From assembly GCA_947477885.1 (NCBI GenBank), contig CANJUD010000004.1:36997-100996 (forward strand): 64,000 nt of DNA, in the 5' to 3' direction. Made by a program: the position numbers and the translations under genes. The stretch comes from Bacteroidota bacterium. Lineage in GTDB: Bacteria > Bacteroidota > Bacteroidia > UKL13-3. The notes under the pieces are model-generated. The model had not been told where the DNA came from. It was given only the letters and a program-made list of their open reading frames with translations, and searched no databases. Positions 6,870 through 63,604 of this stretch are shown piece after piece (position 1 is the stretch's first letter; each line of letters starts with the position of its first letter).

Positions 6870-7403
6870 TTAGTTCTCTACTATAGGAGTTGTATCCTCA
6901 ACCGAAGTTGTTACATTCGCATCCGTACTTTCTTCTTCCACAACTTCCTCCTCCTCAACAGGTGCTTCTTCCACCAAAGGATTTTCCATTGTTGACGGAA
7001 TTTCATCAAGCGAAGGAACTTCGGGCACTTCAGGATTTTCTGCAGCCGCAGCAGCATTTGCCTGCATAACTGTATTGGCAGAAATAGACATAACAAATTT
7101 ATTACTCAATACAAATTTAAAATTGCCAACTTTTAGCAAATCTTTGGCTGTATCGTTTTCATTTAAAGCACGTGCAAAGTCAAGTGCGATTGCAGAAGTT
7201 TTTTTGCTTTTTTGAGAACGGCCCTCGTTCATTTCCAAATCGAACGGGAACTTGCTGTTCTTTTTATCACTAGCTCTTTCAAAATCTATTTTATCCATTT
7301 CTATGGTTTGCACTTCACCACTTCTAATAGCTGACTTTACTTTCAGCGTAATTAGTGGTAAAAATTTATTCCATACAGATTGATATATATTGATATTGCT
7401 CAT
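6870..7403 (-). CDS. Hypothetical protein with acidic C-terminal tail
   Basis: ORF with good coding look. Start likely at internal MSNINIYQ. C-terminal EEAPVEEEEVVEEE low-complexity tail. Confidence 0.45.
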   Translation of the reverse strand: MSNINIYQSVWNKFLPLITLKVKSAIRSGEVQTIEMDKIDFERASDKKNSKFPFDLEMNEGRSQKSKKTSAIALDFARALNENDTAKDLLKVGNFKFVLSNKFVMSISANTVMQANAAAAAENPEVPEVPSLDEIPSTMENPLVEEAPVEEEEVVEEESTDANVTTSVEDTTPIVEN

Positions 7404-8987: not shown

Positions 8988-9065
8988 TAAGGAGTAAGGA
9001 GTAAGTTTTGCCGAATGGTCCATACTCCTTACTCCTTAATCCTTCCCCAAATAACAACAACACAC

Positions 9066-9911
9066 ATGAACAAAATATTCACACCAATTATAATAAGTTT
9101 TCTTTTGTTTTCATGCAATGATTGCAAGAATGCTGCAGAGAATAATGATTTAACAAAATCCAAAATATTGGATAAAGTTAAGACATTGGCAGTAACAAAA
9201 TATTCATATATAATAGATTCTGGAAAATATGTGAAGGGTGGTATGATATCAAAACTCAAATCACATTATGATGAAAAAGGGATGGAGGTAGATGTTAATG
9301 TATATAATAAGGATGAATATTTAACCAATAAATTCCAAACAAGCAATAATGATAAAGGGCAAAAATTAGAAAGTAAGGACTTTAAGCCAGATGGTAGTTT
9401 GGGAAGAAAAATTGCTTATAAATATGATAACAGTGGAAATATGACTGAAATTAATTTATATACCGCCAGCGATAGTTTAGTTTATAAAGGGGAAAAAAAA
9501 TATGATAATCAGTGCAACGAGATTGAGTATAATGAATACGAATCAACAGGTAAATTAACCAAAAGAGCTACTTATAAATATGATGAAAAAAGGAATGGGA
9601 TAGAGGTAAACTATTATAGTCCCGATGGTAGTATAATAAATAAATATACAAGAAAATACGATTCGAAAAATAACATGATTGAGCTATTGATGTATAATAA
9701 TTCAAATACATTATTAAGCAAATCATTATATAAATACGATGACAAAGGAAATAACGTTGAGGCTAAAAGATATCATGCAGATGGCAGTTTAAGCAATCAG
9801 TCTTTTTTCAAATATGAATATGACAAGAATAGTAATTGGATAAAAATGATAGAATACAATACAGAAAATATTCCCGTCAGGCTTGAAGAACGAATGATTG
9901 AGTATTATTAG
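9066..9911 (+). CDS. Small YD-repeat-containing lipoprotein
   Basis: Lipoprotein signal MNKIFTPIIISFLLFSC. At least six tandem ~24-aa repeats of the form YKYDxxGNxxExxxYxxDGSL (canonical YD/RHS-type repeat). Confidence 0.6.
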   Translation: MNKIFTPIIISFLLFSCNDCKNAAENNDLTKSKILDKVKTLAVTKYSYIIDSGKYVKGGMISKLKSHYDEKGMEVDVNVYNKDEYLTNKFQTSNNDKGQKLESKDFKPDGSLGRKIAYKYDNSGNMTEINLYTASDSLVYKGEKKYDNQCNEIEYNEYESTGKLTKRATYKYDEKRNGIEVNYYSPDGSIINKYTRKYDSKNNMIELLMYNNSNTLLSKSLYKYDDKGNNVEAKRYHADGSLSNQSFFKYEYDKNSNWIKMIEYNTENIPVRLEERMIEYY

Positions 9912-10117: not shown

Positions 10118-10609
10118 TTAATAAGTGAGTTCTTTTAGTTTAGCCAAGTATAATAAATATAGGTTGGCACAAGCCATTGCGTCACTTAATGCATCGTGGT
10201 GGTTTAAAGATATTTCATATTGCCTGCATAAGGTGGCTAAATTTTTTCCATATATTTTATAGGTACATGCTTTTTCAAAGTCGGGCTTAACTATATTATA
10301 ATAATCCAGAGTTTCGTGAAGACAACCAATATCAAAAGCGGTATTATGTGCTACCACTTTTTGATTATGTATATAATGTTTGATGTCGTTCCAAACAGCA
10401 CTAAATAGAGGAGCATTCATCGTATCTCTCGCACTAATACCATGTATTTCGGTGTTTCTGTAAAAATAAAAATTATCTGGTGGGCGAACTAATCTATTGA
10501 TTTTATCTACCACTTCACCATTTACAACCCTCACCAATCCAACCTGACAAATGCTCCAGCGTTTGCCGTGTGCAGTTTCAAAATCTATGGCGGTAAAGGT
10601 GTGTGGCAT
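10118..10609 (-). CDS. 3'-5' exonuclease, DnaQ-like (DEDDh family)
   Basis: MPHTFTAIDFETA (Exo I), HNTAFDIGCL (Exo II), HHDALSDAMACANLY (Exo III). Confidence 0.8.
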   Translation of the reverse strand: MPHTFTAIDFETAHGKRWSICQVGLVRVVNGEVVDKINRLVRPPDNFYFYRNTEIHGISARDTMNAPLFSAVWNDIKHYIHNQKVVAHNTAFDIGCLHETLDYYNIVKPDFEKACTYKIYGKNLATLCRQYEISLNHHDALSDAMACANLYLLYLAKLKELTY

Positions 10610-10620
10610 GTATAAAAAAA

Positions 10621-10697
10621 GTCCTTAGTTTATAATACAAAACTAAGGACTTTTTATTATACAACTTTCCAAAAGTTATAAACTTTTGGAAAGCTAA
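10621..10697 (-). terminator. Tandem hairpins downstream of the metalloprotease gene
   Basis: AAAAAGTCCTTAGTTT...AACTAAGGACTTTTT, then CTTTCCAAAAGTTATAAACTTTTGGAAAG. Confidence 0.6.
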
Positions 10698-10704
10698 CAG
10701 CTAA

Positions 10705-13314
10705 CTATTTATTACTTTCAAATGCTTGCTTAATCAAGAAACTTATATATTGTCTATGTGCTGTAGTTTCTTTGTTAACTGGCGTTGCACCCACAGCTGG
10801 TGCTGCATTCACCATGCCATTGATATTTTTCAATGATTGATATACTGCTGCTTTGGCAACAAAATCACCACTGAAACTTCCCAACATATCTATCAAACGA
10901 GTTACATAAGCTGCTTGCAAATTTTGGCGAACCGTATTCACATTTGCTCCTTGGTCATCTTTGAAAATGGCATTGGTTAATTCGCCCATCATATCTGTAA
11001 CGGTATATTTATTTCCATACTGGCGGCTATCTGTTAAGCGACGCAAAGTATTACTGCTAAGCAAATGTCCGAGAACACCTGTTTGTATATTTAATATACG
11101 TGAATGTATTTTTGGGTCTTCTGTATTTCCAAAGAAATTAAATCCCCTGCGTTGCATTTGTAAGTATGGATATAAACTTTGAGCAGCATCAAAAGCATCA
11201 GGGGCAAATATATTTTTCGCCAGTATGCTCATCGCTTTCTTTTGGTCGGTTAATGGCACTGGAGTATAGGGTTGGGTAGATCCAAGTTGCCCCATGAATC
11301 CTCGGTTCACATACACGCCACCCACATAACGGCTTACTACTGTTGCAGCACTGTTCATCTCACCAGTTAATATCAAATATCCTTGACGCAATTCTTGATA
11401 GCTTTGTGCGGGTTTATTATATTTGTCTTTCAAGCCAAGCATATAAGCATTCACCAATTTAAAACGACTAGCTGAATAACCCAAAACGTCTTTACTAATA
11501 TCATTGACATTTACTCTGGGGTCGATACCGTTAAATGAACTACGCATATCATCAGCATCATTACCAAAAATAAGCAAACTATCATTCGATTTTTCTAAAA
11601 TCTGTGTGATTCTTCTTTCTTCAGTTGAAGCATTTTCGTCGGCTGCACTATATGCATATTCTATTGCCCAATTATCATAAGGACCAGGTTTGTTGGTAAA
11701 GTACAATCCTTGCTTGGCCTTGTCAGCAGCTAGATTCACGGCTGGGTAATCCATTACAGAGGCTGTTAATCCCAATCTGTCCGTAATAGCTTTATCATTC
11801 AATTGGTCGGGCCACAGCATTTGACTAGCTTTCATATTGTGATTCAAACCCATGGTATGTCCCATTTCGTGCAATACCAAATAGTATAAACTTTGTTTTA
11901 GATATTCTTTTACATCAACCTCACTTGCACCTTGAGCTGCCAAAGCTGTGCGACCCAGTATCATATTATGCTGCATACTTTCGCCCAATTGGCAGCAGTG
12001 TTTTCCTTTCACATCAGTCTCTTCTTTTTCATTCTCTATATTTAGTCCCGATGCATTGAAAAGTTTTTCTTGTTTCAATCTGTTGGTCACAAATATATAT
12101 TCGAGCATTATATCAGCACCCATAATCTGACCAGTACGTGGGTTCACAAAACTAGGGCCATAGCCACCAAATGGGGGATTGGGAGAAGAAGTCCAACGTA
12201 ATACATTATATCTAATATCACCTGCATCCCATGCTGCATCATCGGGTTGTTCGTTTATTACAACTGCATTTTTGAAACCTGCTTTTTCAAAAGCTAAATT
12301 CCAACGCAGTCCAGCTTCTTTTATAATAGGACGGAATTCTTTGGGAGTGGAGTTTTCAATCCACCAAGTGATTGGTTCAACAGGTTCGCTGATAGCAGCT
12401 GTCGGATCTTTCTTTACTAAATCCCACCGATGTATCATATCTTTATATGGAGTAGGAGATGTAGAAGTCATATCCTCTACCTCGGTGCTGAAGTACCCTA
12501 CACGCGGGTCATCACGGCGTGGTTTAAAATTATTGGCAGGCATTTCAATCAGCGTATGTTGCAAACGCACAGTTACTGAGCGTGCATCCGCTACTTCGCT
12601 TCCACCACCATTCATGGGCATGGGATTATCATATACATAATCAACTATTACATTGGTATTATAGGGATAGTTATGAATGGAAACATATTTAGATTTGTCT
12701 TTATTCAATCCACCCAGGCTAAAAAAGAAAGCGGCAAATGGACCACCCGAAGGAGCAGGTTTTACTTGGTGAAGGGCTTCACCCATAAATATACTATTAG
12801 CATCCAATAAATATTCTTGCTTGGCAGTATCATATACAGTTACTTTTAAACTTGCCAATACCGCATCGCTCACATTTGCATCGGCCGATTTACTGATGGC
12901 ATTTTGTGGGTCGAAATAGAAATTGGTATTTTTACTGATGAATTCAATTTTATCATAATATTTGCGTAGACCGAACACACGATTATCTCTAAAATTTCCG
13001 CGATTATGACCTGTTTCCACCAATCCATTTTCAGAATAGGCAAAGTAAATATATTCTTTATCAATTTGACTTTTCTTAACGGATATCCATAAATTCCCAG
13101 TCGTGGTGTCCTGATAGAGATTGAATAGCCCTTCGAATTTTTTGCAAGGTTTTACTTTTTCTTCAAAAGCATTTTTCTTTTTTTCATCGGGTTTTGAGGG
13201 CTTTTCCTCGGTTGCGAAAGTGCTTCCAATTGAAAATGCAAAGATTAATGCGTAGGTAATATTTTTACTCATCATATTTTTTGTTTTAAGGAGTTCGTGA
13301 ATTGAAAATTTCAT
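10705..13314 (-). CDS. Secreted zinc-dependent metalloprotease (DUF5117/DUF5118-type, HEMGH)
   Basis: 869 aa, signal peptide, HExxH zinc site LVLHEMGHTMGLNHN. Architecture typical of Bacteroidetes DUF5117/5118 metalloproteases. Confidence 0.8.
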   Translation of the reverse strand: MKFSIHELLKTKNMMSKNITYALIFAFSIGSTFATEEKPSKPDEKKKNAFEEKVKPCKKFEGLFNLYQDTTTGNLWISVKKSQIDKEYIYFAYSENGLVETGHNRGNFRDNRVFGLRKYYDKIEFISKNTNFYFDPQNAISKSADANVSDAVLASLKVTVYDTAKQEYLLDANSIFMGEALHQVKPAPSGGPFAAFFFSLGGLNKDKSKYVSIHNYPYNTNVIVDYVYDNPMPMNGGGSEVADARSVTVRLQHTLIEMPANNFKPRRDDPRVGYFSTEVEDMTSTSPTPYKDMIHRWDLVKKDPTAAISEPVEPITWWIENSTPKEFRPIIKEAGLRWNLAFEKAGFKNAVVINEQPDDAAWDAGDIRYNVLRWTSSPNPPFGGYGPSFVNPRTGQIMGADIMLEYIFVTNRLKQEKLFNASGLNIENEKEETDVKGKHCCQLGESMQHNMILGRTALAAQGASEVDVKEYLKQSLYYLVLHEMGHTMGLNHNMKASQMLWPDQLNDKAITDRLGLTASVMDYPAVNLAADKAKQGLYFTNKPGPYDNWAIEYAYSAADENASTEERRITQILEKSNDSLLIFGNDADDMRSSFNGIDPRVNVNDISKDVLGYSASRFKLVNAYMLGLKDKYNKPAQSYQELRQGYLILTGEMNSAATVVSRYVGGVYVNRGFMGQLGSTQPYTPVPLTDQKKAMSILAKNIFAPDAFDAAQSLYPYLQMQRRGFNFFGNTEDPKIHSRILNIQTGVLGHLLSSNTLRRLTDSRQYGNKYTVTDMMGELTNAIFKDDQGANVNTVRQNLQAAYVTRLIDMLGSFSGDFVAKAAVYQSLKNINGMVNAAPAVGATPVNKETTAHRQYISFLIKQAFESNK

Positions 13315-21744: not shown

Positions 21745-21972
21745 ATGTCCGACAACTTCATCACCATCCTCACATCCCAGCAACCCATTCAACTTGCCAT
21801 TATCCGCGGCAGGCTAGAGTCGGAGGGGATTGAGTGTTTTATTAAGGATGAGCTTACCATACAAGTGCAGCCGTTTTATTCCAATGCAATTGGTGGGGCA
21901 AAGTTGCAGGTAAGGGAGAGTGATGTGGATTTAGCGAATGAGATTTTGAGGGAAGGAGGGTATATAAAATAG
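21745..21972 (+). CDS. DUF2007 domain-containing protein (putative signal-transducing protein)
   Basis: 75 aa, sequence typical of the small DUF2007 family. Confidence 0.6.
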   Translation: MSDNFITILTSQQPIQLAIIRGRLESEGIECFIKDELTIQVQPFYSNAIGGAKLQVRESDVDLANEILREGGYIK

Positions 21973-22029
21973 CCCTTCGACTTCGCTCAGAGTGCACACA
22001 AAATAATAATTATAAAATATCAAATCTCC

Positions 22030-31957: not shown

Positions 31958-34594
31958 ATGAATCTTAACAATTTTACCATCAAAAGTCAGGAAGCCATAC
32001 AGAAGGCTCAGGAACTTGCAGCCAGCAGCGATCACCAAGCTATCGAGACTGGCCACTTGCTCAAAGGAATTCTGCTCGAAGACCAAAACGCCATCCCATT
32101 CATCATGAAAAAACTGAATATGAATGTGAATCGAGTATCACAAACAGTAGATGTTATTGTAAGCAGTTATCCCAAAGTGAGTGGCTCTACAAATGGGCAA
32201 TATCTAAGCAATACTGCCCAACAAGTTTTAACCAAAGCACAATCAGAAGCTACATCTATGAAAGATGAATATGTTTCTGTTGAACATATATTAATGGCAT
32301 TATTAGCCAATAAAGATCAAGTAGCACAGATGCTAAAAGATGCAGGTGCTACAGAAAAAGATTTGAAAAAAGCTATCATAGAATTGCGTGGCGGAAATCC
32401 GATTACGAACGCAAACGCCGAAGAAACTTATAATGCATTAAATAAATATGCACGTAACCTCAACGAACTGGCATCAGCCGGAAAGCTTGACCCTGTAATA
32501 GGTCGCGATGATGAAATACGCAGGGTATTACAAATATTGTCACGTCGTACCAAAAACAATCCTGTATTAATAGGCGAACCTGGTGTAGGAAAAACTGCCA
32601 TTGCCGAAGGACTTGCACACAGAATTGTAAATGGCGATGTACCCGAAAATTTGAAATCGAAAACAGTTTTTAGTTTGGATATGGGTTCACTCATTGCAGG
32701 TGCAAAATTTAAAGGGGAATTTGAAGAAAGATTAAAAGCTGTAATAAAAGAAGTAATAGGCAGCGATGGCCAAGTAGTATTATTTATTGATGAAATACAT
32801 ACACTGGTAGGAGCAGGGGCAGGTGGCGACAGTGCCATGGACGCTGCCAATATATTAAAGCCCGCACTTGCCCGTGGCGAGCTTCGTGCCATTGGTGCAA
32901 CTACGCTTGCCGAATATCAAAAGTATATAGAAAAAGACAAAGCATTGGAACGTCGTTTCCAAAAAGTATATGTGGATGAACCCGATACCGAAGATGCAAT
33001 TGCGATATTGCGTGGATTAAAAGAACGCTATGAAGTGCATCACAAAGTGCGTATAAAAGATGAAGCTATTATAGCTGCCGTTGAACTTTCACAAAGATAT
33101 ATAAATGATCGTTTCCTGCCCGATAAAGCTATTGACTTAATAGACGAAGCCGCTGCAAAATTGCGTATCGAAATTGATTCTGTTCCAGAAGCATTGGATG
33201 AAATTGAACGCAGAATCATGCAATTGGAAATTGAGCGTGAGGCCATCAAACGTGAAGGTATGGAAGGTAAAGTAAAAGATATAGCAGCCGAACTTGCCAA
33301 CCTAAACGATGAACGAAATAGTATGAAAGCGAAGTGGCAAGGAGAGAAAGCTGTAGTAGAAGGCATACAAAAAAAGAAAGAAGAAATAGAACAACTTAAG
33401 CACGAAGCCGACCAAGCTGAGCGTGCCGGAAACTATGGACTGGTAGCAGAAATTCGTTATGGTAGAATAAAAGAAACAGAAGAAGCATTGGAAAAATTCC
33501 AAAGCAAATTGAACGATATACAACATGATAACCCCATGGTGAAAGAGGAGGTTGATAGTGAAGATATAGCAGGCGTAGTAAGCCGTTGGACGGGCATTCC
33601 TGTTACACGTATGCTACAAAGTGAAAAAGAAAAACTATTACATTTAGAAGCTGAATTGCATAAAAGAGTAGTAGGGCAGGATGAAGCTATTGAAGCCATA
33701 TCAGATGCGATACGCAGGAGCAGAGCAGGATTGGGCGATCCAAAAAAACCAATTGGTTCGTTTATATTTTTAGGAACTACTGGTGTTGGAAAAACAGAAT
33801 TAGCAAAAGCATTGGCGGAATTTTTATTCAACCAAGATACAGCGATGGTAAGAATTGATATGAGTGAATACCAAGAGAAACATACAGTAAGTCGTTTGAT
33901 TGGAGCTCCTCCTGGATATGTAGGTTACGAAGAAGGTGGACAGTTGACCGAAGCAGTTCGTCGTCGTCCATACAGTGTGGTGTTGTTAGACGAAATTGAA
34001 AAAGCACATCCTGATGTATTTAATATATTATTACAAGTTTTAGATGATGGGCATTTAACCGATAACAAAGGCCGCACAGCCAATTTCAAAAATACAATTG
34101 TTATAATGACCAGCAATATTGGTAGTCATATTATACAAGAGAATTACGAAAACTATGATCCTGCAAAAGCTGAAGAAATATCAGCAAAAACCAAAAACCA
34201 ATTGATGGATGTATTGCGTAAAACCATACGTCCTGAGTTTTTAAATAGGATTGATGATATAATCATGTTCGAACCTTTAACACGTGAAAACGTGGAAGAA
34301 ATTGTGCAATTACAATTCAAACATTTGCAAAAACAATTAAAAGAACATGATATTCAATTGGATGCTACTATGGAATCATTAGAATGGTTAGCTCAACTTG
34401 GTTATGACCCCACACTCGGTGCACGCCCCTTGAAACGCGTATTGCAAAAGAAAGTAATGAACGAACTAAGCAAACAAATACTAGCAGGTAATGTGAAAAA
34501 AGACAGCCATATTATGATGAGTTTGGATGAGGGGAAGAATTTGGTTTTTAAAGAAGTGCCCTTCGACTCCGCTCAGGGTGACAACAAGGAGTAA
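31958..34594 (+). CDS. clpB: ATP-dependent chaperone ClpB
   Basis: Clp N domain, two AAA+ modules (GEPGVGKT Walker A twice), M-domain coiled coil, C-terminal D2-small domain. Confidence 0.95.
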   Translation: MNLNNFTIKSQEAIQKAQELAASSDHQAIETGHLLKGILLEDQNAIPFIMKKLNMNVNRVSQTVDVIVSSYPKVSGSTNGQYLSNTAQQVLTKAQSEATSMKDEYVSVEHILMALLANKDQVAQMLKDAGATEKDLKKAIIELRGGNPITNANAEETYNALNKYARNLNELASAGKLDPVIGRDDEIRRVLQILSRRTKNNPVLIGEPGVGKTAIAEGLAHRIVNGDVPENLKSKTVFSLDMGSLIAGAKFKGEFEERLKAVIKEVIGSDGQVVLFIDEIHTLVGAGAGGDSAMDAANILKPALARGELRAIGATTLAEYQKYIEKDKALERRFQKVYVDEPDTEDAIAILRGLKERYEVHHKVRIKDEAIIAAVELSQRYINDRFLPDKAIDLIDEAAAKLRIEIDSVPEALDEIERRIMQLEIEREAIKREGMEGKVKDIAAELANLNDERNSMKAKWQGEKAVVEGIQKKKEEIEQLKHEADQAERAGNYGLVAEIRYGRIKETEEALEKFQSKLNDIQHDNPMVKEEVDSEDIAGVVSRWTGIPVTRMLQSEKEKLLHLEAELHKRVVGQDEAIEAISDAIRRSRAGLGDPKKPIGSFIFLGTTGVGKTELAKALAEFLFNQDTAMVRIDMSEYQEKHTVSRLIGAPPGYVGYEEGGQLTEAVRRRPYSVVLLDEIEKAHPDVFNILLQVLDDGHLTDNKGRTANFKNTIVIMTSNIGSHIIQENYENYDPAKAEEISAKTKNQLMDVLRKTIRPEFLNRIDDIIMFEPLTRENVEEIVQLQFKHLQKQLKEHDIQLDATMESLEWLAQLGYDPTLGARPLKRVLQKKVMNELSKQILAGNVKKDSHIMMSLDEGKNLVFKEVPFDSAQGDNKE
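34434..34557 (+). repeat. Direct repeat copy 1 (within the clpB 3' end); candidate attL
   Basis: ~124 bp matching 39126-39249 at ~89-90% identity (13 mismatches by eye). Confidence 0.8.
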
Positions 34595-34650
34595 GGAGGA
34601 GGGGTCTATCTTTAATTAGCTGTACCAATAGTTAAAGTTATATTATAATA

Positions 34651-34700
34651 AAAGACGAAAGGTGTAGTTTATACTATTGGCTTTCGTCTTTTTGTTTTTC
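34651..34700 (+). terminator. Rho-independent terminator after clpB
   Basis: AGACGAAAGG...(loop)...CTTTCGTCTTTTTGTTTTT stem-loop followed by a T-run. Confidence 0.7.
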
Positions 34701-35070
34701 TACCGCGTCATCCGATAGCTATCGGATGCGAGGAACGAAGCAATCTCATCCTAAGCAGAATATATTATATAATAGTATATAAGGGAGTTATTAAGAAATG
34801 TTAAAACTGGAAAACTATTTGGAAAGATTGTATTTATAGGATATTATTGCAAGTGTATAGGTAGTTGTTTATGAAAAGTATATAAAAGTTAGCTCCAACA
34901 TTTTTGAAAAATTGTTAACCATAATATTTCTGCAATAAACAAACTGACCAAGACAAAACACTGCCAATAATTAACGTAAGTAGCCGGCCATAATTTTAAT
35001 ATTTCACAGCGACATGGTTTGGCGTTTGCGGATTCTATTTTTGCATCGTAACAATCAAATCATTGTCAAA

Positions 35071-35772
35071 ATGAAAATTCAAAAGCATGAAACGCCACAG
35101 CAAAAAGAAAAAGAAATAGAACACCTTTCTTTTATTCAATCAAATGGTTCAGTAAGTAAATATGGACTTGAAACTTTCTTTGAGAAAACTTTCAATTGTT
35201 TAAAAGAAGAACTTCAACGATTGAGGAACACAATTTACGATTACAACCAGCATGAATACATTTTTGCCCTAAATGAAAGGGCTTGGGTAGGTGCATTTAA
35301 CAATGCTATTTTGAGAGCACTTCCCGATAGCACTGTTACACTGCAAGAGTTTGGAGTTTACGACAAAAAACATTTCATCGGCAGAGCTGATTTTCTTGTT
35401 TATTGGAAGGATAAAAATAACAAGCCGCTTTATCTTCTTTTTGAAGCCAAGCAGTATGAGGAGACAATCAAATCAGAATTGCTTGATGATGCAACCGAGT
35501 ATCTGCATACTGTAAGAATACAAGGACAAAAATATTTTGATGCAGAAGAAGAAACTGAATACTATAAAGATAAAAATGTTTTAGTTATTCCAATTGCTTT
35601 TGGTTGGATAAGAAAACCAGACTTTTTAAATGAGGCAAAAAAATATTTTGAAGGTGGAGAAAAGAAAGATAAGTCAACAGATTTTTGCTCTTTGTATTTT
35701 GAAGGTGAGCATGGTGCTTGGGTTTATGGGAAAATTTATGATGCAAGAGAATCAATTACTCTTTTAAAATAA
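35071..35772 (+). CDS. Hypothetical PD-(D/E)xK-like nuclease-fold protein
   Basis: RADFLVYW...LYLLFEAKQ fits a D-x(n)-hhh-E-x-K core. Paralog of 50749-51405 (shared W.G..N.AI, LQEF, R.DF, LFE.K, YYKD, P.I.FG, TDFC..Y.....WVYGKI blocks). Stop overlaps the WYL gene start (TAATG). Confidence 0.55.
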   Translation: MKIQKHETPQQKEKEIEHLSFIQSNGSVSKYGLETFFEKTFNCLKEELQRLRNTIYDYNQHEYIFALNERAWVGAFNNAILRALPDSTVTLQEFGVYDKKHFIGRADFLVYWKDKNNKPLYLLFEAKQYEETIKSELLDDATEYLHTVRIQGQKYFDAEEETEYYKDKNVLVIPIAFGWIRKPDFLNEAKKYFEGGEKKDKSTDFCSLYFEGEHGAWVYGKIYDARESITLLK

Positions 35773-36689
35773 TGTCTAAGCGAGGTTACGTATCAAGATA
35801 CTTGCTCATTCTGAAAAAACTGAAAGCAAAACCTTACAGTTCTTATGAGGAAATGCAAAATTATTTTGACAATCAGATTGATTACTTGCAAATGCAGGAT
35901 GATACATTGAGCATTGGTTTTTCAAAGCGAACATTTCAACGTGATATAAGGGAAATACGAAATCTATTTGGAGTGGATATAGAATATTCAAAATCCGAAA
36001 AAGGCTATTTTATTTCGCAGAGTGAGATGGAGAACATGAACTTTCAAAGAATGATTGAAACATTTGATATGTTTAACTCATTAAATTTTTCTCAGGACTC
36101 GAAGCCATTTATACATTTGGAAAAACGGAGACCCCAAGGAACAGAAAATTTATACGGACTGCTTCATGCAATCAAAAACAAATTGCAGATAAAATTTTCT
36201 TATCAGAAATTTTGGGATGAAGAATCAAGTACTCGGACAGCAGAACCTTATGCCCTAAAAGAGTTTAAGAATCGTTGGTATGTTTTAGCAAATGACATGA
36301 AGGAAGGACTAATCAAAAGTTTTGCTCTTGATCGTTTGGCAAATCTTGATATTACAAAAAAGTCATTCTTCTATCCTGAAAATTTTGATATTGAAGAAAA
36401 CTATCGCTACTGTTTTGGAATCATTAGCCCAAATGGAAAAGAACCGCAAGAAATAATTTTATCCTTTGACCCACTTCAAGGCAAATACATCAAATCATTG
36501 CCTTTGCACGATACACAAAAAGTTTTGGTTGACAACGAAGAAGAACTTCAAATAAAATTAACTTTATGTATCACCTTTGATTTTGTAATGGAACTTTTAT
36601 CATTCGGTGATCACATGAAAGTTGTTAAACCAAAATCACTGATAAAAGAAATTAAAGAAGCACATCAGAGAGCATTCAAACAATACTAA
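35772..36689 (+). CDS. WYL-domain transcriptional regulator with N-terminal HTH
   Basis: N-terminal DeoR/HTH-like segment (RTFQRDIREIRNLFG). Central WYL motif (FKNRWYVLANDMKEGLIKSFALDRLANL). Architecture of BrxR/CapW-type regulators. Confidence 0.75.
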   Translation: MSKRGYVSRYLLILKKLKAKPYSSYEEMQNYFDNQIDYLQMQDDTLSIGFSKRTFQRDIREIRNLFGVDIEYSKSEKGYFISQSEMENMNFQRMIETFDMFNSLNFSQDSKPFIHLEKRRPQGTENLYGLLHAIKNKLQIKFSYQKFWDEESSTRTAEPYALKEFKNRWYVLANDMKEGLIKSFALDRLANLDITKKSFFYPENFDIEENYRYCFGIISPNGKEPQEIILSFDPLQGKYIKSLPLHDTQKVLVDNEEELQIKLTLCITFDFVMELLSFGDHMKVVKPKSLIKEIKEAHQRAFKQY

Positions 36690-36790
36690 ATCAAGCAAAT
36701 TTGAACGGATAGTATATTATTTCAAATCACTGTTTGGTATACATCATGAAATAATAGAAACAACGAAAATGACACTAATAAAAAACATAT

Positions 36791-37402
36791 ATGAACAAAA
36801 TAATTGAGAGCCATTTTATACTTGGACAAGATAGTAAACTCACTAATCTTATTATTGAAGCTTTTGGCAGTAATTGGGATGAAAAAGATCTGGGTCAAAA
36901 TGGACATATTGTTTTTCTTGATATAGAACCAATACAGACTATTATTTCCTCTATAAGTTCAAGTTCTGAGCCTAAATTAGAAAAGCCATCCTTCTCAGAC
37001 TATTTAAAAAAGATTGATTATTCAAACTTTGATAATCTTTTGTTGCTTGTTTCTACTTATTCGTGGGGTGACTATGAGGAAATCTTGAAGAAAGTAAATA
37101 ACACATTCGGATTTGAGAATAAACATCTTGACATGGTGTTGAAGGAAACAAATGGATTGCTTATATACTCATACCAATTGGAAAACTTGTTCATTATGGC
37201 AACAGGCTCTGACATGGAACAAGCAGTTACTTTCAGAAAAGATATCAATAAGAAAAAGGCTATCACATTTGAAGAATCTAAAAAAATGAAATTATTCGGC
37301 ACCACATTGCATGCAATTATGGAGGACAGGATGCCACTAATAGGGACTCGTTATGGTAGGTATTCCGAAACATATAAATTGTATCAGTATCTGAATTTAT
37401 AG
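36791..37402 (+). CDS. Hypothetical protein (203 aa), third gene of the putative WYL operon
   Basis: ORF with a coding-like look and no recognisable motif. Convergent with the PIN gene. Confidence 0.45.
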   Translation: MNKIIESHFILGQDSKLTNLIIEAFGSNWDEKDLGQNGHIVFLDIEPIQTIISSISSSSEPKLEKPSFSDYLKKIDYSNFDNLLLLVSTYSWGDYEEILKKVNNTFGFENKHLDMVLKETNGLLIYSYQLENLFIMATGSDMEQAVTFRKDINKKKAITFEESKKMKLFGTTLHAIMEDRMPLIGTRYGRYSETYKLYQYLNL

Positions 37403-37404
37403 TT

Positions 37405-37914
37405 TTATTTTGCTAGCTTTTTTAATTTCCTAATCAACTTTTCAATCTCATCCAATGGTAAGCGATCATTCACAGTTTTAAGTATCTCTAAAAATCTAAT
37501 ACCTACCTCGGGTGAAATTATTTTTTGTTCTACTATAATTTGTATTACCCACAAACTCCCATGTACTATAACACCTTGTTCAAGTGCTTCATTTCGTAAC
37601 TTTGCATCACCTGTAAGCAGCGGACAGTTCAATTGCTTTGCTTTCCATAATACTGTTTTATCAATCAGCGTTTTGAAAAACCTCGTCGTTTTTAAATTTT
37701 GTACCTCATCAATTTCCTGTTCAGTTAGTTCAAATACTATAAGTTTTTGCGAGCGAATAAACATTTCAATTTGCTCTTTCTGTTCCGATTCTAATATTTC
37801 GCCTTTTACAAAATCTGTTGTGCATATTTCAAAATCCAACGCAAAGAACTCAGGCAATGCCTGAATCTTTATGATATCAAAAAACACACTCGAATCTGTA
37901 ATTACTAGTTTCAT
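37405..37914 (-). CDS. PIN-like domain protein (DUF4411-type), partner of ImmA/IrrE peptidase
   Basis: MKLVITDSSVFFDII, a PIN-like acidic N-terminus. The internal ATG at 37914-37912 overlaps the upstream gene's TGA as ATGA. Confidence 0.6.
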   Translation of the reverse strand: MKLVITDSSVFFDIIKIQALPEFFALDFEICTTDFVKGEILESEQKEQIEMFIRSQKLIVFELTEQEIDEVQNLKTTRFFKTLIDKTVLWKAKQLNCPLLTGDAKLRNEALEQGVIVHGSLWVIQIIVEQKIISPEVGIRFLEILKTVNDRLPLDEIEKLIRKLKKLAK

Positions 37915-38981
37915 ACTATCTGGTGTAATTGCTCCCGAAACTTCCATGCTGATACGCCGAGATAATAAGCCGCTTCATTTACTGTTAAAATTTCTTTTGA
38001 TAAGCCGAGATACACCAAACGCTCCATTCGCACAGGTTTTTCTTTACTCATATATCGTCCCGGTTCATTCAAACTCAACTTTCTTTCTTTATAGCCTATA
38101 TTAAATCTTCTATATATATAATCTGTAATAATTTTTAAATGCAATGCTCTCGAAAATATAGCAGTGAAAGAAATTCCCCACCGTTCTTTAATCAATACCA
38201 ATTCGTTTTGATAGAAATGAAAACGGTCTTTGCTTAATTCTTTCAAAGCCATATCAGCAGGATATAGAACAGCACTGGCAAAAGCATGACACAATTTTTC
38301 GGTTTCTTTATCAGTTAATTTATCCGAAAAATTTAGTGCGTGGTGAGCCAATTCATGCATTGCGGTAAATCGTTTTCTAACCACATCTTCTCCAGGCTTT
38401 TTACTTTTTCTTAGAACAATAATTTTATGATTGTCAACATCTGCTTTCATTCCATCAAAGCCATCGGGAGCATCTAATTCAATGACCTTGTAACCTTTGT
38501 CTTCCAGCATTTCAACCACATCGGCTATTGGATCATATCCCAGTTTCCATTTGTTTCTTAGCTCTTTTGCAGCGGCTTCTGCATCATCTGCATTATATAT
38601 AACTTTATCATAACTGAAATATTCTGATTTTTCTTGAGGGCTTATCAGATGCTCTAATTCCAAATAGCTTTCGCAACTTTCTTTTGCTTTTTCCTCAATA
38701 GCAATTTGCTCTGTTTTTGAAATTTTAGTAATATATTTTCGGTAGTCCACATTTGTGAGTTCCACATTTACTGCAGGAACTGAATAAAAATAATCAGCAG
38801 GAATACTCAAAGCATTTGCTAAGGCAAGTAATACCTTACTATCGGGTTTCATTTTACCTTGTTCGTATTTATGCAATGCCTGACGAGAAACAACTTTTTC
38901 AAGTTTGTTTTCTAAGTCCTGCAAGGACATACCTGCCATCTTCCGGGCCGACACCAGTTTATTTCCAAATACATTTTCCAT
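37911..38981 (-). CDS. Fused XRE-family HTH / ImmA-IrrE (COG2856) metallopeptidase
   Basis: N-terminal HTH_XRE (LVSARKMAGMSLQDLENKL...SRQALHKYEQG). Zn-peptidase HExxH (AMHELAHHALNF) in a DUF955/ImmA-like domain. Confidence 0.8.
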   Translation of the reverse strand: MENVFGNKLVSARKMAGMSLQDLENKLEKVVSRQALHKYEQGKMKPDSKVLLALANALSIPADYFYSVPAVNVELTNVDYRKYITKISKTEQIAIEEKAKESCESYLELEHLISPQEKSEYFSYDKVIYNADDAEAAAKELRNKWKLGYDPIADVVEMLEDKGYKVIELDAPDGFDGMKADVDNHKIIVLRKSKKPGEDVVRKRFTAMHELAHHALNFSDKLTDKETEKLCHAFASAVLYPADMALKELSKDRFHFYQNELVLIKERWGISFTAIFSRALHLKIITDYIYRRFNIGYKERKLSLNEPGRYMSKEKPVRMERLVYLGLSKEILTVNEAAYYLGVSAWKFREQLHQIV

Positions 38982-39008
38982 TGTTTTATTTATATGAGCA
39001 CTTTAATT

Positions 39009-39044
39009 GTTGACAAAAGTACCATATTTTTTAGAATTGTCAAC
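39009..39044. promoter_or_regulatory. Inverted repeat GTTGACAA-N20-TTGTCAAC in the promoter region of the HTH/ImmA gene (candidate operator)
   Basis: Perfect 8-bp inverted repeat seen directly ~30-60 bp upstream of the minus-strand start at 38981. A GTCAAC half-site recurs at ~39085. Confidence 0.4.
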
Positions 39045-39125
39045 CAATAAATTTTAACAAATTTTAAACAGTAAGCAAAAGGAATGGTCAACTACTTGCT
39101 TCATTCTAAGTAGATATTGACTCTA

Positions 39126-39251
39126 AAACGTGTATTACAAAAGAAAGTAATGAACGAACTCAGCAAACAAATCTTAGCGGGCAATGTGAAAAAGGACAGT
39201 CATATGATGATGAGTTTGGATGAAGGGAAGAATTTGGTGTTTAAGGAAGTA
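39126..39251 (+). pseudogene. clpB: Relic 3' fragment of clpB (direct repeat copy 2); candidate attR
   Basis: In-frame translation RVLQKKVMNELSKQILAGNVKKDSHMMMSLDEGKNLVFKEV* matches the ClpB C-terminus encoded at 34437-34557. No upstream ORF. Confidence 0.8.
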
Positions 39252-39258
39252 TAATATA

Positions 39259-40836
39259 TTACTCCTTAGTATCCCATTCCCACACAGAATAATACTTGGC
39301 AAACTCTATCAATCGTTTATGAGTTTTAAATACACCTGTAGGAGTTTTGGAGAGCAATAGGTCCCAATTTGCATTGGGTGTTATAATAAACTTATAAGGT
39401 GCCGAATCGAGTGCTTCTATGGTGCGAATTCCAAATTTTGTTTTTGCATAGCCAATCAAATCACGGTCGTACGGTTCATATTGGTCTAGTGGTTTCGAGA
39501 GTAAAATAAACTGGGTTATGTTTTTACGATTATTATAGCTCGATTTGAAATAGGTTTTCATGGAATACAGCCATTCATTGTAATAGATTGTTGGTTCTGC
39601 AGCTATTAGAATTGGCGTATTCTCATTCGTGTTTTCTTTAATATATTGCAGCATTAAATTTGATTTTATCCCTTCATCAGCATATATATAAGTGCGGTAG
39701 AAAGCCACAACTACTTGGCATGTAACCAAAAATACCGTGATTAAAATAACATACTTATAATACTTTTCGATATAGTTTAACATATATAACAATCCAAAGC
39801 ATACTGCCAATGCTGGTCCTATTGCAGATGGGATTAAATATCGTTCGGTCATAGCAGATTTCATGTATATAACAAATTGTGGTCCCAATAGCAATACATT
39901 GAATATAATAACAAATCCAAAATCGGAATAGAAGTTTTTGAATAGTGATTTTATTCGCTGCGGCGAATTATCTCTCTGATTTTTAATCCAAAATAACAAT
40001 ATCAACCCCAGTGAAATGGCAAATCCATTGGTGAGCAAAAACAACCACACCGCTGATTTTAAAATGTTTAATATATATTTGAGCGAGAATCCATCATACC
40101 CCGCATACCCTATATTTTGATTGCCCACCAAAAACTTGATGCAAGCCAAACCTATGACAACGAGTATAATATTAGTAATACAAAATATCTTGTTATTCTT
40201 TACAATATCCCAACTAAAAGTTTGATATTTCATATAGAGCATCCATACCACAAAAGCTGGAATAGCAATCAAAAATGTTTCTTTGAACAGTGCTCCTGAA
40301 ATAATAAATATGCTATAAAATATATATTTTAGAATCGTAGTGAGATTTGATTTTGTATGCAAGGTATATATATAACTTGCGGCTAATATGCAAGTAAGCC
40401 CTTCTGTTTCGCCCAAGCCCAGCCTGTACCAGAGGGCTACTTGCATACCCATCATACTCATAAACGAAAATAAAAGAGCGAATGAAGCATTGTTTTTATA
40501 AGTCTTTAATCCCAAAAATAAAAACAAACATGCAGTAATCATTGCATGCAGTAAATCATAATAGTAGTAATTGGAAAAAGTATCGCCCCAAAAATATATT
40601 TTGGTGATATAAGTAATATAATAAAAAAATCGGAAACGGATATCTAAATCATTACTAATCCACTTATGCATAGTGTGCCAGTATCCATTGGCTTTTAAGT
40701 CGTCGGATATTTGATATATGGCATGGTCATCAGTAAAATGAAAACCACTCTGAAAAGCCCCACTAAGTTTTAAAAACAAAAACCAAAATAGACTGAGTCC
40801 AATAATTATATATATATTCCTTTTGGTATTTTTCAT
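39259..40836 (-). CDS. Polytopic membrane protein, GT-C-type glycosyltransferase-like (ArnT/PMT family 39-like)
   Basis: 525 aa, about 12 predicted TM helices. Aromatic-rich loops typical of GT39/ArnT-like proteins. Assignment tentative. Confidence 0.5.
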   Translation of the reverse strand: MKNTKRNIYIIIGLSLFWFLFLKLSGAFQSGFHFTDDHAIYQISDDLKANGYWHTMHKWISNDLDIRFRFFYYITYITKIYFWGDTFSNYYYYDLLHAMITACLFLFLGLKTYKNNASFALLFSFMSMMGMQVALWYRLGLGETEGLTCILAASYIYTLHTKSNLTTILKYIFYSIFIISGALFKETFLIAIPAFVVWMLYMKYQTFSWDIVKNNKIFCITNIILVVIGLACIKFLVGNQNIGYAGYDGFSLKYILNILKSAVWLFLLTNGFAISLGLILLFWIKNQRDNSPQRIKSLFKNFYSDFGFVIIFNVLLLGPQFVIYMKSAMTERYLIPSAIGPALAVCFGLLYMLNYIEKYYKYVILITVFLVTCQVVVAFYRTYIYADEGIKSNLMLQYIKENTNENTPILIAAEPTIYYNEWLYSMKTYFKSSYNNRKNITQFILLSKPLDQYEPYDRDLIGYAKTKFGIRTIEALDSAPYKFIITPNANWDLLLSKTPTGVFKTHKRLIEFAKYYSVWEWDTKE

Positions 40837-40876
40837 TTACAATCAATCACTCCAGTTGTATATATAGTATTATGAC

Positions 40877-41602
40877 TTATCCTTTATAATCTTTCAAATA
40901 GGCTGCAGCTCTGTCTCTATCAGGAAGTTTACATTCATAAAATCTGTAAAATGCCAATCCTTTGCTAATTCCAAAGACCGAGCATTTACAGTCATCGTAA
41001 AAGTATTCGAGAACTTCTTGCACCTCTCTTGCCTTATTTACGTGTTCGTGGTTCATCAGCACATGATAGGGGAGTTTGTGTTTGAGCCAAAATTCAATAC
41101 CGGTGGTAAGGGTATAGCCCAATTTCCACATAATAGTTCCTTCATTGGGAATAGAAATACGCAGGCTCCCGCCTTCGTTCATCATCAAACAACTTTTAGC
41201 AACCACCTTCGGTAGGTCGGTAACATGCTCAAAAGTAGCTATAGCTGTTATGCGGTCATATTGTTGTTTAAGTTCTATTTCGTCAATATCATCATAAATA
41301 TTGCGAACTTTACTGAGCAAGGGATTTCCTTCAAACAAACTTTTGAAAGGCTCAATTATATCGTATGGGGATGCATCTTCATACTGCAATTGGTTTAAGG
41401 TGCCTGCACCGATTTCCAATGTGGCTTTATCGCTTTTGCCCACAAGGTCGGCAGCAGCTTTTTTGTGCAGCCACTCTTCCATCTTATTTGATACAGAAGT
41501 GGCGGCAGTAGCACCATCACGGTTTTTCCTGTAGTGTTCAGCATAAATTTTTTGGTAGGCTTCAGGCAGCACTGACCTTTGTTTGGGGAATTTTTCGAAC
41601 AT
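40877..41602 (-). CDS. Class I SAM-dependent methyltransferase
   Basis: Motif I LEIGAGTLNQL. Likely start at MFEKFPKQ. Confidence 0.7.
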   Translation of the reverse strand: MFEKFPKQRSVLPEAYQKIYAEHYRKNRDGATAATSVSNKMEEWLHKKAAADLVGKSDKATLEIGAGTLNQLQYEDASPYDIIEPFKSLFEGNPLLSKVRNIYDDIDEIELKQQYDRITAIATFEHVTDLPKVVAKSCLMMNEGGSLRISIPNEGTIMWKLGYTLTTGIEFWLKHKLPYHVLMNHEHVNKAREVQEVLEYFYDDCKCSVFGISKGLAFYRFYECKLPDRDRAAAYLKDYKG

Positions 41603-41695: not shown

Positions 41696-42550
41696 GTGAA
41701 AAAATATATACTTCCGTTGTTGATTCTGGTATTCATAAACAATATTAATGCTCAAAAAAAAGACGCTTATATAATCTATAACAATAAAGGCAAAAAAGTG
41801 ACGTATGCCCAAATGTTAAAATCAATGTCAGCGGCTGATATCGCTCTGTTTGGCGAACAACATAACTGTGCAATTGCCCATTGGCTGCAATTAGAAACAA
41901 TCAAAGATTTATATAGTAAGCGAAAGCTAACCTTGGGTGCCGAGATGGTTGAGGCGGACAATCAAACGCAATTGGATTTATATTTGAACGGTAAAATAAA
42001 TCAAAAGGCTTTTGATACTACTGCCAGGCTTTGGCCCAATTATGCTACAGACTATGCACCCTTGGTAAATTTTGCAAAGGATAGTCATTTGGTTTTTGTT
42101 GCTACCAATATTCCGAGAAAATTTGCAAATCAGGTAATGAAAAGAGGTTTTCAAACCTTAGATAGCTTAACTCCACAACAAAAGACTTGGATGGCTCCGC
42201 TACCTATGGCTTATGATTCTACATTACCTGGATATATAAAAATTGTAGAAATGATGGGCGGACACGGTGGTTCCAACATGCCCAAAGCCCAAGCCACCAA
42301 AGATGCGACCATGGCGTATTTCACGCTTAAAAATTATGTTTCCGGAAATCTGTTTGTACATTTTAATGGAGCATTTCACAGCGATAATCACGAAGGAATA
42401 TTATGGTATCTGAAAAAAGATAAACCCAATCTAAAATATATAACAATAAGTACCGTAACCCAACAAGATATATATAAACTAGAAAAAGAAAATATTGGCA
42501 AGGCTGATTTTATAATCTGTGTAGATGAGGATATGACGAATACTTATTAG
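41696..42550 (+). CDS. ChaN-family lipoprotein (heme/iron-associated Tiki/TraB-like fold)
   Basis: Signal peptide. GEQHNCAIAHW motif characteristic of the ChaN family. Confidence 0.6.
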   Translation: MKKYILPLLILVFINNINAQKKDAYIIYNNKGKKVTYAQMLKSMSAADIALFGEQHNCAIAHWLQLETIKDLYSKRKLTLGAEMVEADNQTQLDLYLNGKINQKAFDTTARLWPNYATDYAPLVNFAKDSHLVFVATNIPRKFANQVMKRGFQTLDSLTPQQKTWMAPLPMAYDSTLPGYIKIVEMMGGHGGSNMPKAQATKDATMAYFTLKNYVSGNLFVHFNGAFHSDNHEGILWYLKKDKPNLKYITISTVTQQDIYKLEKENIGKADFIICVDEDMTNTY

Positions 42551-42617
42551 GAATAAAGAGTAAGGAGCTGACGCCGAATGGCACTTATGCCTTAATCCTT
42601 TTTCCCTAATGATTCTT

Positions 42618-63477: not shown

Positions 63478-63579
63478 TGCGTAATTCCCCGAATCCTGAC
63501 TACTGAATCCCGAATCCCATCTAGGTGTGTGTAGCCTGTGCGTAATTCCCTGAATCCCGAATTCTGAATCCCGAATCCC
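63478..63579. repeat. Two 41-bp direct repeats (GCGTAATTCCCyGAATCC...TGAATCCCGAATCCCA) separated by a 20-bp spacer
   Basis: Seen directly. Each unit contains three GAATCC sub-repeats. An inverted copy GGGATTCGGGG lies at 63334-63346. Confidence 0.7.
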
Positions 63580-63604
63580 AATCCATATCTTCGCAACCCA
63601 TAAA

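Follow-up and report, generated by a model that had tools for sequence, protein, structure and literature searches.

An integrase-less islet of predicted defence genes bracketed by two clpB 3' ends in a Bacteroidota bacterium

Introduction

Integrase-borne islands are found at the 3' ends of genes, e.g. SGI1 at trmE and ICESt1/3 at fda, and the usual layout at such sites is a block of homology spanning from a point inside the target gene to its end. The ssrA islands of Dehalococcoides (PMC3146451) are further integrase-borne islands at a gene 3' end. Decayed remnants of integrative and conjugative or integrative and mobilizable elements (ICEs and IMEs) are described in streptococci, where these cis-mobilizable elements (CIMEs) keep their attachment (att) sites, with integration and transfer genes absent (PMC5704250). 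Integration hot spots of defence islands are treated in an Escherichia coli pan-genome study (PMC10121019). Here we describe an islet at the 3' end of clpB in a 64-kb stretch of DNA, called the window below, from a Bacteroidota bacterium (assembly GCA_947477885.1, contig CANJUD010000004.1, positions 36,997 to 100,996). Five open reading frames (ORFs) lie in the 4.6 kb between two copies of the clpB end. We regard the islet as a further case of a known kind, i.e. what is left, without an integrase, of an island at the 3' end of a gene, and which is now a defence islet.

Positions are those of the window unless a locus is named, and the features are collected in Table 1. Compared loci and database proteins are cited by our working labels (L and P numbers).

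Results

Two alleles of the clpB 3' end border the islet

Alignment of the two borders bore out the repeat that an earlier note on this DNA had placed at the clpB end: 34433-34557 and 39126-39250 form a direct repeat of 125 nt, mismatched at 13 positions (90% in the repeat search; 89.6% with E 1.9e-41 by blastn; MAFFT agrees). A 14th mismatch between the copies falls in the final Val codon, beyond the 125 nt, and the longest identical stretch is the 23 nt at 34445-34467. The block starts directly 3' of the codons for the invariant GARPL motif of ClpB, and in a self-blast it is the sole sizeable direct repeat of the window. The only other repeats in that comparison were a 42-nt direct repeat (63478-63519 and 63539-63580, 90%) and a 56-nt palindrome (10609-10663, 86%).

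The downstream copy, which we call the relic, is derived from clpB, again as had been proposed. It is in frame and codes for KRVLQKKVMNELSKQILAGNVKKDSHMMMSLDEGKNLVFKEV, the last 42 residues of ClpB, with its own TAA at 39252-39254; its clpB homology has an abrupt onset at AAACG (39126), upstream of which the DNA is not clpB-like. Four nucleotides separate the relic from the convergent membrane-protein gene of the resident right flank.

Over 126 nt the upstream copy (copy 1) and the relic differ at 14 sites, of which 13 are synonymous and one is a conservative Ile/Met exchange; taking a chance of 0.26 per random substitution, the probability of 13 synonymous changes in 14 is about 3e-7. Because the differences are so nearly all synonymous and the frame of the relic is intact, both copies appear to have diverged within working clpB genes, as two alleles under purifying selection and not as a decayed local duplication.

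Which of the two alleles is the resident one can be judged from L105, a 4.5-kb contig recovered in a metagenome scan with the ClpB C-terminus and the closest relative found. It has neither islet nor relic; identity to the window is 90.5% (nt) for its clpB (against 32934-34557) and 86% for its membrane-protein gene (against 39258-41158). When the three sequences are compared, copy 1 is the odd one out at nine sites, the relic at two (the adjacent bases 34480-34481) and L105 at six (one-sided binomial P 0.033 for nine against two), which gives 115 identities over the 126 nt for relic and L105, 112 for copy 1 and relic, and 108 for copy 1 and L105. In each of the four related lineages, homology in the right flank restarts at 39245-39256, which is precisely the end of the relic. 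Since L105 is closer to the relic and the flank homology resumes at the relic's end, the relic would be the resident clpB end and the intact gene would carry an imported one, in line with the earlier proposal of a replacement end and a displaced original. That an imported clpB end came with cargo, the resident end being left behind as a relic, we consider highly probable, however the crossover was made.

Upstream of 34433, third-position divergence from L105 is not raised in sliding windows (7-13 differences per 42 codons, mean 10), and no clear imported tract is seen there. A breakpoint test with the homologues P0002 and P0005 placed the ClpB C-terminus nearer the 80%- than the 86%-identical lineage, but the relic behaves likewise, so that the test was uninformative on import.

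Table 1. Features of the clpB locus, in window positions
Feature	Position	Strand	Description
Intact clpB	31958..34594	+	878 aa; last 162 nt judged to be the imported end; protein identical to database P0001
Repeat copy 1 (clpB 3' end in use)	34433..34557	+	judged to be the imported allele
New C-terminal tail and stop	34558..34594	+	PFDSAQGDNKE, 11 extra residues
Non-coding left part of islet	34599..35156	.	perfect 20-nt palindrome at 34709-34728
Hairpin and T-run, intrinsic-terminator-like	34650..34700	+	55 nt past the new clpB stop; probably islet-supplied
PD-(D/E)xK nuclease-like ORF	35014..35772	+	252 aa; second gene of a three-gene module; homologous core begins near 35157
WYL-WCX regulator	35772..36689	+	gene 3 of the nuclease/WYL module; Pfam WYL 6e-14, WCX 5e-9; PADLOC WYL 2e-30
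Pol III finger-like ORF	36791..37402	+	203 aa; Pfam DNA_pol3_finger 1e-7; NCBIfam DnaE models about 2e-6, far under their cut-offs
DUF3368 PIN-like protein	37405..37947	-	180 aa; candidate toxin; PF11848 (precomputed annotation)
RmrA-like antitoxin/repressor	37911..38981	-	putative; Pfam HTH_3 and Peptidase_M78; PADLOC RmrA 2.5e-43
Upstream/operator segment of the rmrA-like gene	38982..39125	.	right end of islet; ends sharply at the relic
Relic (putative displaced resident clpB 3' end)	39126..39254	+	42 codons and TAA
Convergent membrane-protein gene	39259..40836	-	525 aa; no Pfam family; resident right flank

The imported end and the DNA behind it

After the identical P0001, the second-best ClpB in the protein search has 86% identity. 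The tail that ends the window protein is absent from all 59 closest ClpB homologues listed. Its DNA is less of a novelty than had been supposed, as the first 24 nt (34559-34582, CCCTTCGACTCCGCTCAGGGTGAC) copy a dispersed repeat, CCCTTCGACTNNGCTCAGGGTGAC, that usually lies directly 3' of a stop codon; it recurs right after another stop codon in the window (21972-21994) and in L089 (1349 and 12838), L091 (3703) and L027 (2240). A Marinilabiliales contig carries it at 25 of 26 bases, so that the repeat is conserved across orders. It belongs to no Rfam family, and an Rfam scan of 30-43 kb gave nothing relevant. The motif that the earlier note had seen at the clpB stop is likewise shared: GAGTAAGGAG spans the new stop at 34589-34598 and occurs four times in the window, against 0.09 expected.

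The terminator-like hairpin downstream of the stop folds at -18.1 kcal/mol (z = -5.2), and none of 200 shuffles folded as well. The non-coding left part of the islet has abundant stops in all six frames and no homologue in any compared locus. A scan for sigma-70 promoters and terminators returned no signal over the shuffled background.

Other hairpins and palindromes recur around these genes. A family of the form AAGGAGTAAGGAG...CTCCTTACTCCTT with the loop GCCGAATGG stands directly 3' of stop codons at 8988-9037 (-26.3 kcal/mol, z = -5.9) and 42550-42600 in the window, and the reverse complement of the loop motif lies just 3' of clpB in L083. Palindromes of the type CCGATAGCTATCGG occur near cassette borders in L105, in L091 and at 34709-34728 of the window. 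The protein set also held one ClpB homologue of 1051 aa (P0009), against about 866-880 aa for the others, which may be a fusion or a gene-calling artefact.

The locus in relatives and within the species

Upstream of the islet, the gene order Mur ligase, CHAP, ORF6N, clpB is common to the window and its relative L083. On the right, homologues of the membrane protein at 77-88% identity were found in four related lineages, each adjoining different DNA. The gene is adjoined in L089 and L090 by the rmrA-like upstream segment alone and then by a CHAP gene, with ORF6N, clpB and all cargo absent; in L091 by a PKD-domain gene, then a RosmerTA-like pair, then DUF2188 and a ubiquitin-like/E1 pair; in L095 by a PKD-domain gene; and in L093 and L105 by an outer membrane protein (OMP)-like gene. 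The last contig thus reads clpB, a single OMP-like gene of 255 aa, and the convergent membrane gene. The earlier note had predicted an empty site in which clpB is followed directly by the membrane gene; no relative has this arrangement. The RosmerTA-like pair is the sole cargo that a relative holds at the same spot, at 89% nt identity between L091 and the window, versus 79% for the flank. Judged by its annotated contents, which vary among relatives, the interval between clpB and the membrane gene is a defence hot spot.

Two local features of these relatives were seen in passing. The OMP-like gene of L105 (borders 1630-1660 and 2600-2640) is flanked by TATATAATT and TATAAAATT, and L089 differs from L090 (L089 11579-12045) by an insertion of about 245 nt, resembling a miniature inverted-repeat transposable element, beside a hairpin.

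The lineage of the closest ClpB, P0002 (86%), conserves the upstream synteny, and all four of its contigs (L083-L086) end 35-343 nt past the clpB stop. This suggests repeat or strain variation right after clpB in that lineage too. The contigs end at or after GC-rich palindromes (GCCCGCCGCGGCGGGC).

In the species of the window the islet appears to be fixed. An exact look-up of the membrane protein returned the same species only, with the islet always present. The arrangement, relic included, recurs in assemblies made independently (ENA and Logan; 24 contigs, the longest of 255 kb), so an assembly artefact or chimeric contig as the source of the repeat has next to no probability in our estimate.

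A mosaic cargo

The nuclease-like ORF has 46 homologues, which are typically 208-220 aa long, so that its true start probably lies later than 35014. Its AlphaFold model has a pLDDT of 92.8, and the top fold matches among solved structures are Shedu SduA (probability 0.99, E 1.5e-3), HincII and NucC, all with weak E-values. Residues D87, E105 and K107 are invariant across 40 sequences. With a modelled restriction-endonuclease-like fold and the D...E-x-K signature, the protein has the features of the PD-(D/E)xK superfamily. The regulator encoded next carries no helix-turn-helix family that scored in its N-terminal 120 residues.

In every other genome examined these two genes form an operon of three, in which a coiled-coil gene of 145-198 aa is followed by the nuclease-like gene and the WYL gene. 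This uncharacterised module comprises about 46 homologue clusters, mostly in Bacteroidota (L096-L104, L185-L190), and sits in unrelated contexts, often defence islands, with neither clpB nor a recombinase nearby. The window copy is without the first gene and its DNA homology begins only at 35157, so that the module is truncated at its 5' side.

The next ORF resembles only the finger domain of the DNA polymerase III (Pol III) alpha subunit and stands alone; it may represent part of a gene or a small protein in its own right. Beyond it are two genes on the opposite strand that overlap by 37 nt. The RmrA-like protein is matched by 14 PADLOC RmrA models and is 93.8% identical in amino acids to its L091 counterpart; for the DUF3368 protein that identity is 88%, and it matches no PADLOC RmrT model. 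We call the pair RosmerTA-like, a predicted toxin-antitoxin. The segment upstream of the rmrA-like gene, with which the islet ends on the right, has conserved counterparts in L089 and L091 (79% mean identity in a three-way alignment) and contains the inverted repeat TTGACAA...TTGTCAA. Taken together, a truncated nuclease/WYL module, a Pol III finger-like ORF and a RosmerTA-like pair make the cargo, as far as annotation can tell, a mosaic and not one coherent element.

Gene-end relics at other loci

Self-comparison of 166 clpB loci, which included a protein-level scan, yielded two more relics, both in other Bacteroidota. (i) In L138 (845-976 against 2130-2236) a 1.2-kb insert with a hydrolase gene is followed by a decayed clpB end with its terminator; this relic begins within about 8 nt of the onset seen in the window. 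(ii) In L153 (610-694 against 1405-1490), which was caught by the protein-level scan only, the insert is of 0.8 kb with a PIN-domain gene and an overlapping small ORF, the relic covers roughly 85 nt of the clpB end with an 18-nt deletion, and a SIR2-TPR gene lies beyond it.

The ends of other genes were scanned over the compared loci (2.2 Mb, 2428 long ORFs). Most of the 68 direct-repeat matches are tandem paralogues or repeat families, two are the clpB-end relics of the window locus and L138, and one other gene-end case was found, in L100. There, a 4-HPPD-like dioxygenase gene has its final 55 nt or so in three copies (6892-6957, 9189-9254 and 11622-11687), each of the two relics being preceded by a common arm of roughly 110 nt. 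The copies bracket an EcoEI_R_C/Bro-N cassette and a complete three-gene nuclease/WYL module, with no recombinase within 10 kb, and the arrangement looks like tandem att sites. The arm was not found in the window or beside the nuclease/WYL module in other genomes.

With three independent clpB-end relics in 166 loci, the L100 array, and the nuclease/WYL module as cargo at two gene ends, one may ask whether there is, in Bacteroidota, a class of small defence cassettes without an integrase that land at the 3' ends of conserved genes, each with a replacement end and a relic, moved in trans by a recombinase or by homologous recombination of the host. We think the existence of such a class doubtful. 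Its role would be comparable to that of integron cassettes or CIMEs.

How the islet may have arrived

In the reading that we prefer, at a probability of roughly 0.45, the islet is a fixed, CIME-like remnant of a crossover made by a recombinase. A single reciprocal crossover within the last 125 nt of clpB would have inserted DNA that bore its own clpB 3' end (34433-34594), i.e. another allele extended by 11 codons from the dispersed 24-nt repeat and provided with its own terminator. As this end is in frame with its own stop and terminator, clpB would have stayed intact, and the resident end (39126-39254) would have moved beyond the cargo. Such a duplication should require an intermediate that is circular or otherwise enters by one crossover. 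Most likely a site-specific recombinase made the crossover; as the islet has no gene for one, the enzyme would have been lost later or would have acted in trans, and attL would lie at 34433 and attR at 39126. The predicted junction of the circle joins 39125 to 34433 (...GATATTGACTCTA joined to AAACGCGTATTGCAAAAG...), and in the predicted restored site the upstream sequence of clpB would run into the relic (...GCACGCCCCTTG joined to AAACGTGTATTACAAAAG...). The interval between clpB and the membrane gene would afterwards have become a strain-variable defence hot spot. In favour of such a crossover are the homology block, which extends from an internal point to the gene end, as at integrase-borne islands, the in-frame imported copy with its terminator, the onset of the L138 relic near the same point, the arms in L100, and L105 as a locus with neither islet nor relic.

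Several results weigh against it. No recombinase is found among the five islet ORFs, as the earlier note had it, nor among the called genes between about 28 and 50 kb, nor in 20 further integrase-sized ORFs of the window; none adjoins the inserts of L138, L153 or L100. Neither the 166 clpB loci nor the searches of plasmids, phages and viral contigs produced an integrase-bearing element at a clpB end or a cognate ICE or IME of matching att specificity. The relic boundaries differ, the L153 relic setting in about 50 nt closer to the gene end. In L089 and L091 the right-end segment of the islet is present without a 125-nt relic. The cargo is a mosaic of modules found elsewhere without clpB and without a recombinase. 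The islet is present in 24 of 24 contigs examined of the window species, with no evidence of excision. Finally, the polarity of resident and imported ends depends on 11 informative sites only. The view of the locus as an element thus holds as regards the imported end and the absence of the islet from L105; its coherence and its current mobility find no support in the mosaic cargo and the constant occupancy. Site-specific integration, which the earlier note had taken to be the mechanism, is not established, as relics elsewhere start at different positions and two routes without a dedicated recombinase fit the local data about as well.

Other searches for a mobile source were also negative. The window has no tRNA gene, and the islet DNA has no match in the plasmid and phage collections. 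Scans of viral contigs with the ClpB end and with RmrA returned nothing, and a profile scan of such contigs returned distant Clp ATPases only. A prophage region (CI-like repressor, antirepressor, RecT) does lie downstream of clpB in L191-L195 (IMG/VR, a Bacteroidales species); it was set aside since these loci share more than 1 kb of DNA after the stop, i.e. the prophage is not integrated in the gene. In a scan of a genome collection with the ClpB C-terminus, conserved motifs saturate, the best match was of 72% identity, so that no close relative came up, and a relic occurred in 0 of 80 loci. In the literature searched, we found no report of the clpB end as an integration target.

One of the two routes is a RecA-dependent insertion of the Campbell type, in which a circle bearing a 125-nt clpB 3' fragment and cargo, e.g. 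one excised elsewhere between such repeats, entered by a single homologous crossover with no dedicated recombinase. The same duplication would be expected, the absence of a recombinase fits, and repeats of unequal length, as in L138, L153 and L100, would follow if whichever gene end is adjacent can be used. The longest identical run between the copies, 23 nt, is roughly the minimum required by RecA, and a crossover at 34482-34500 fits the comparison with L105 as well as one at the left edge (nine sites fit and two conflict either way). However, 125 nt at 89.6% identity is a poor RecA substrate, no circular form or second islet copy was found, and the origin of a first circle whose clpB fragment starts exactly at AAACG is left unexplained; we consider this route unlikely. 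The other route is one-sided, illegitimate recombination with a donor strain that had an island beside clpB, using clpB homology on the left and AAACG microhomology on the right, 125 nt before the resident stop, so that the resident end is the scar. Suitable donors exist, since sister lineages hold related, differing islands; no recombinase was found, and the relic boundaries vary in L153 and L138. In L089, moreover, the right-end segment ends in ...GAAACG and is joined straight to the post-stop sequence with no 125-nt relic. This had looked like proof of an AAACG microhomology join, and was downgraded because the junctions in L089 and L091 can equally be read as loss of the relic at a later time, through a deletion between short TAA repeats; L091 keeps AGCGTAA from the clpB stop region. 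Homology-facilitated illegitimate recombination normally deletes recipient DNA and does not duplicate it, contrary to what is seen here, and no imported tract is visible upstream of 34433, so this route too seems improbable to us.

A local tandem duplication of the clpB 3' end, later split by inserted genes and with its downstream copy decaying, would be compatible with the direct repeat alone. A free copy, however, should gather non-synonymous changes and indels, as the L138 and L153 relics did, and the relic of the window has its frame intact with 13 of 14 differences synonymous. Further, the copy under constraint has more private changes (nine) than the supposedly free one (two), and the relic is nearer to L105 than to copy 1. 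We regard such a duplication as very improbable.

Discussion

If the resident end was displaced in this way, the relic would be a dated scar, recording that the defence islet came with a foreign clpB end and not gene by gene. In this lineage of uncultured Bacteroidota it also marks the junction of clpB and the membrane gene as a putative defence hot spot. Part of the cargo belongs to a candidate defence module, so far uncharacterised, in which a coiled-coil protein is combined with a PD-(D/E)xK nuclease and a WYL regulator. Should integrase-less gene-end relics prove common, they would be a sequence mark by which defence islets and their limits could be recognised cheaply in metagenomes, and would imply a transfer route that works with no recombinase encoded by the element.

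Among the features by which a site-specific island or IME is recognised, terminal direct repeats with a restored target gene are present at the clpB locus, and an internal tyrosine, serine or DDE integrase is absent. With SGI1, ICESt1/3 and the ssrA islands it has in common a block from an internal point to the gene end, the replacement of that end and a relic at the far junction. Those islands encode or adjoin an integrase and use one fixed crossover site; the clpB islet has no integrase, and the onsets of the clpB relics differ.

RosmerTA (RmrT/RmrA) is a toxin-antitoxin defence system reported by Millman et al. in 2022. The islet pair resembles it in an antitoxin-like protein with HTH and M78 peptidase domains and an overlapping small downstream gene, and departs from it in the partner, which is a DUF3368 PIN-like protein; a defence activity of the pair is thus a prediction from sequence. 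Of the domains expected in a BrxR/CapW-like WYL regulator, i.e. WYL and WCX behind an N-terminal HTH, the regulator of the islet shows WYL and WCX, and no HTH family scored in its first 120 residues.

Most of the hot spots in the E. coli pan-genome are said to be occupied by recognisable mobile elements, unlike the clpB site, where only small integrase-less blocks and a gene-end relic are seen. The two are alike in that one position between two conserved genes holds differing defence cargo in related genomes.

The CIMEs are the systems with which our preferred reading, a fixed remnant of a recombinase-made crossover, is best compared. The islet differs from them in that no cognate ICE or IME was found, in the length of its repeat (125 nt, 90% identical), in a patchwork cargo shared in part with relatives, and in its Bacteroidota host. 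Like a CIME, the islet lies between direct repeats that resemble attL and attR and contain the 3' end of the target gene, it lacks genes for integration and transfer, and an end brought by the element keeps the gene intact; as L100 shows, a layout of this sort allows tandem accretion.

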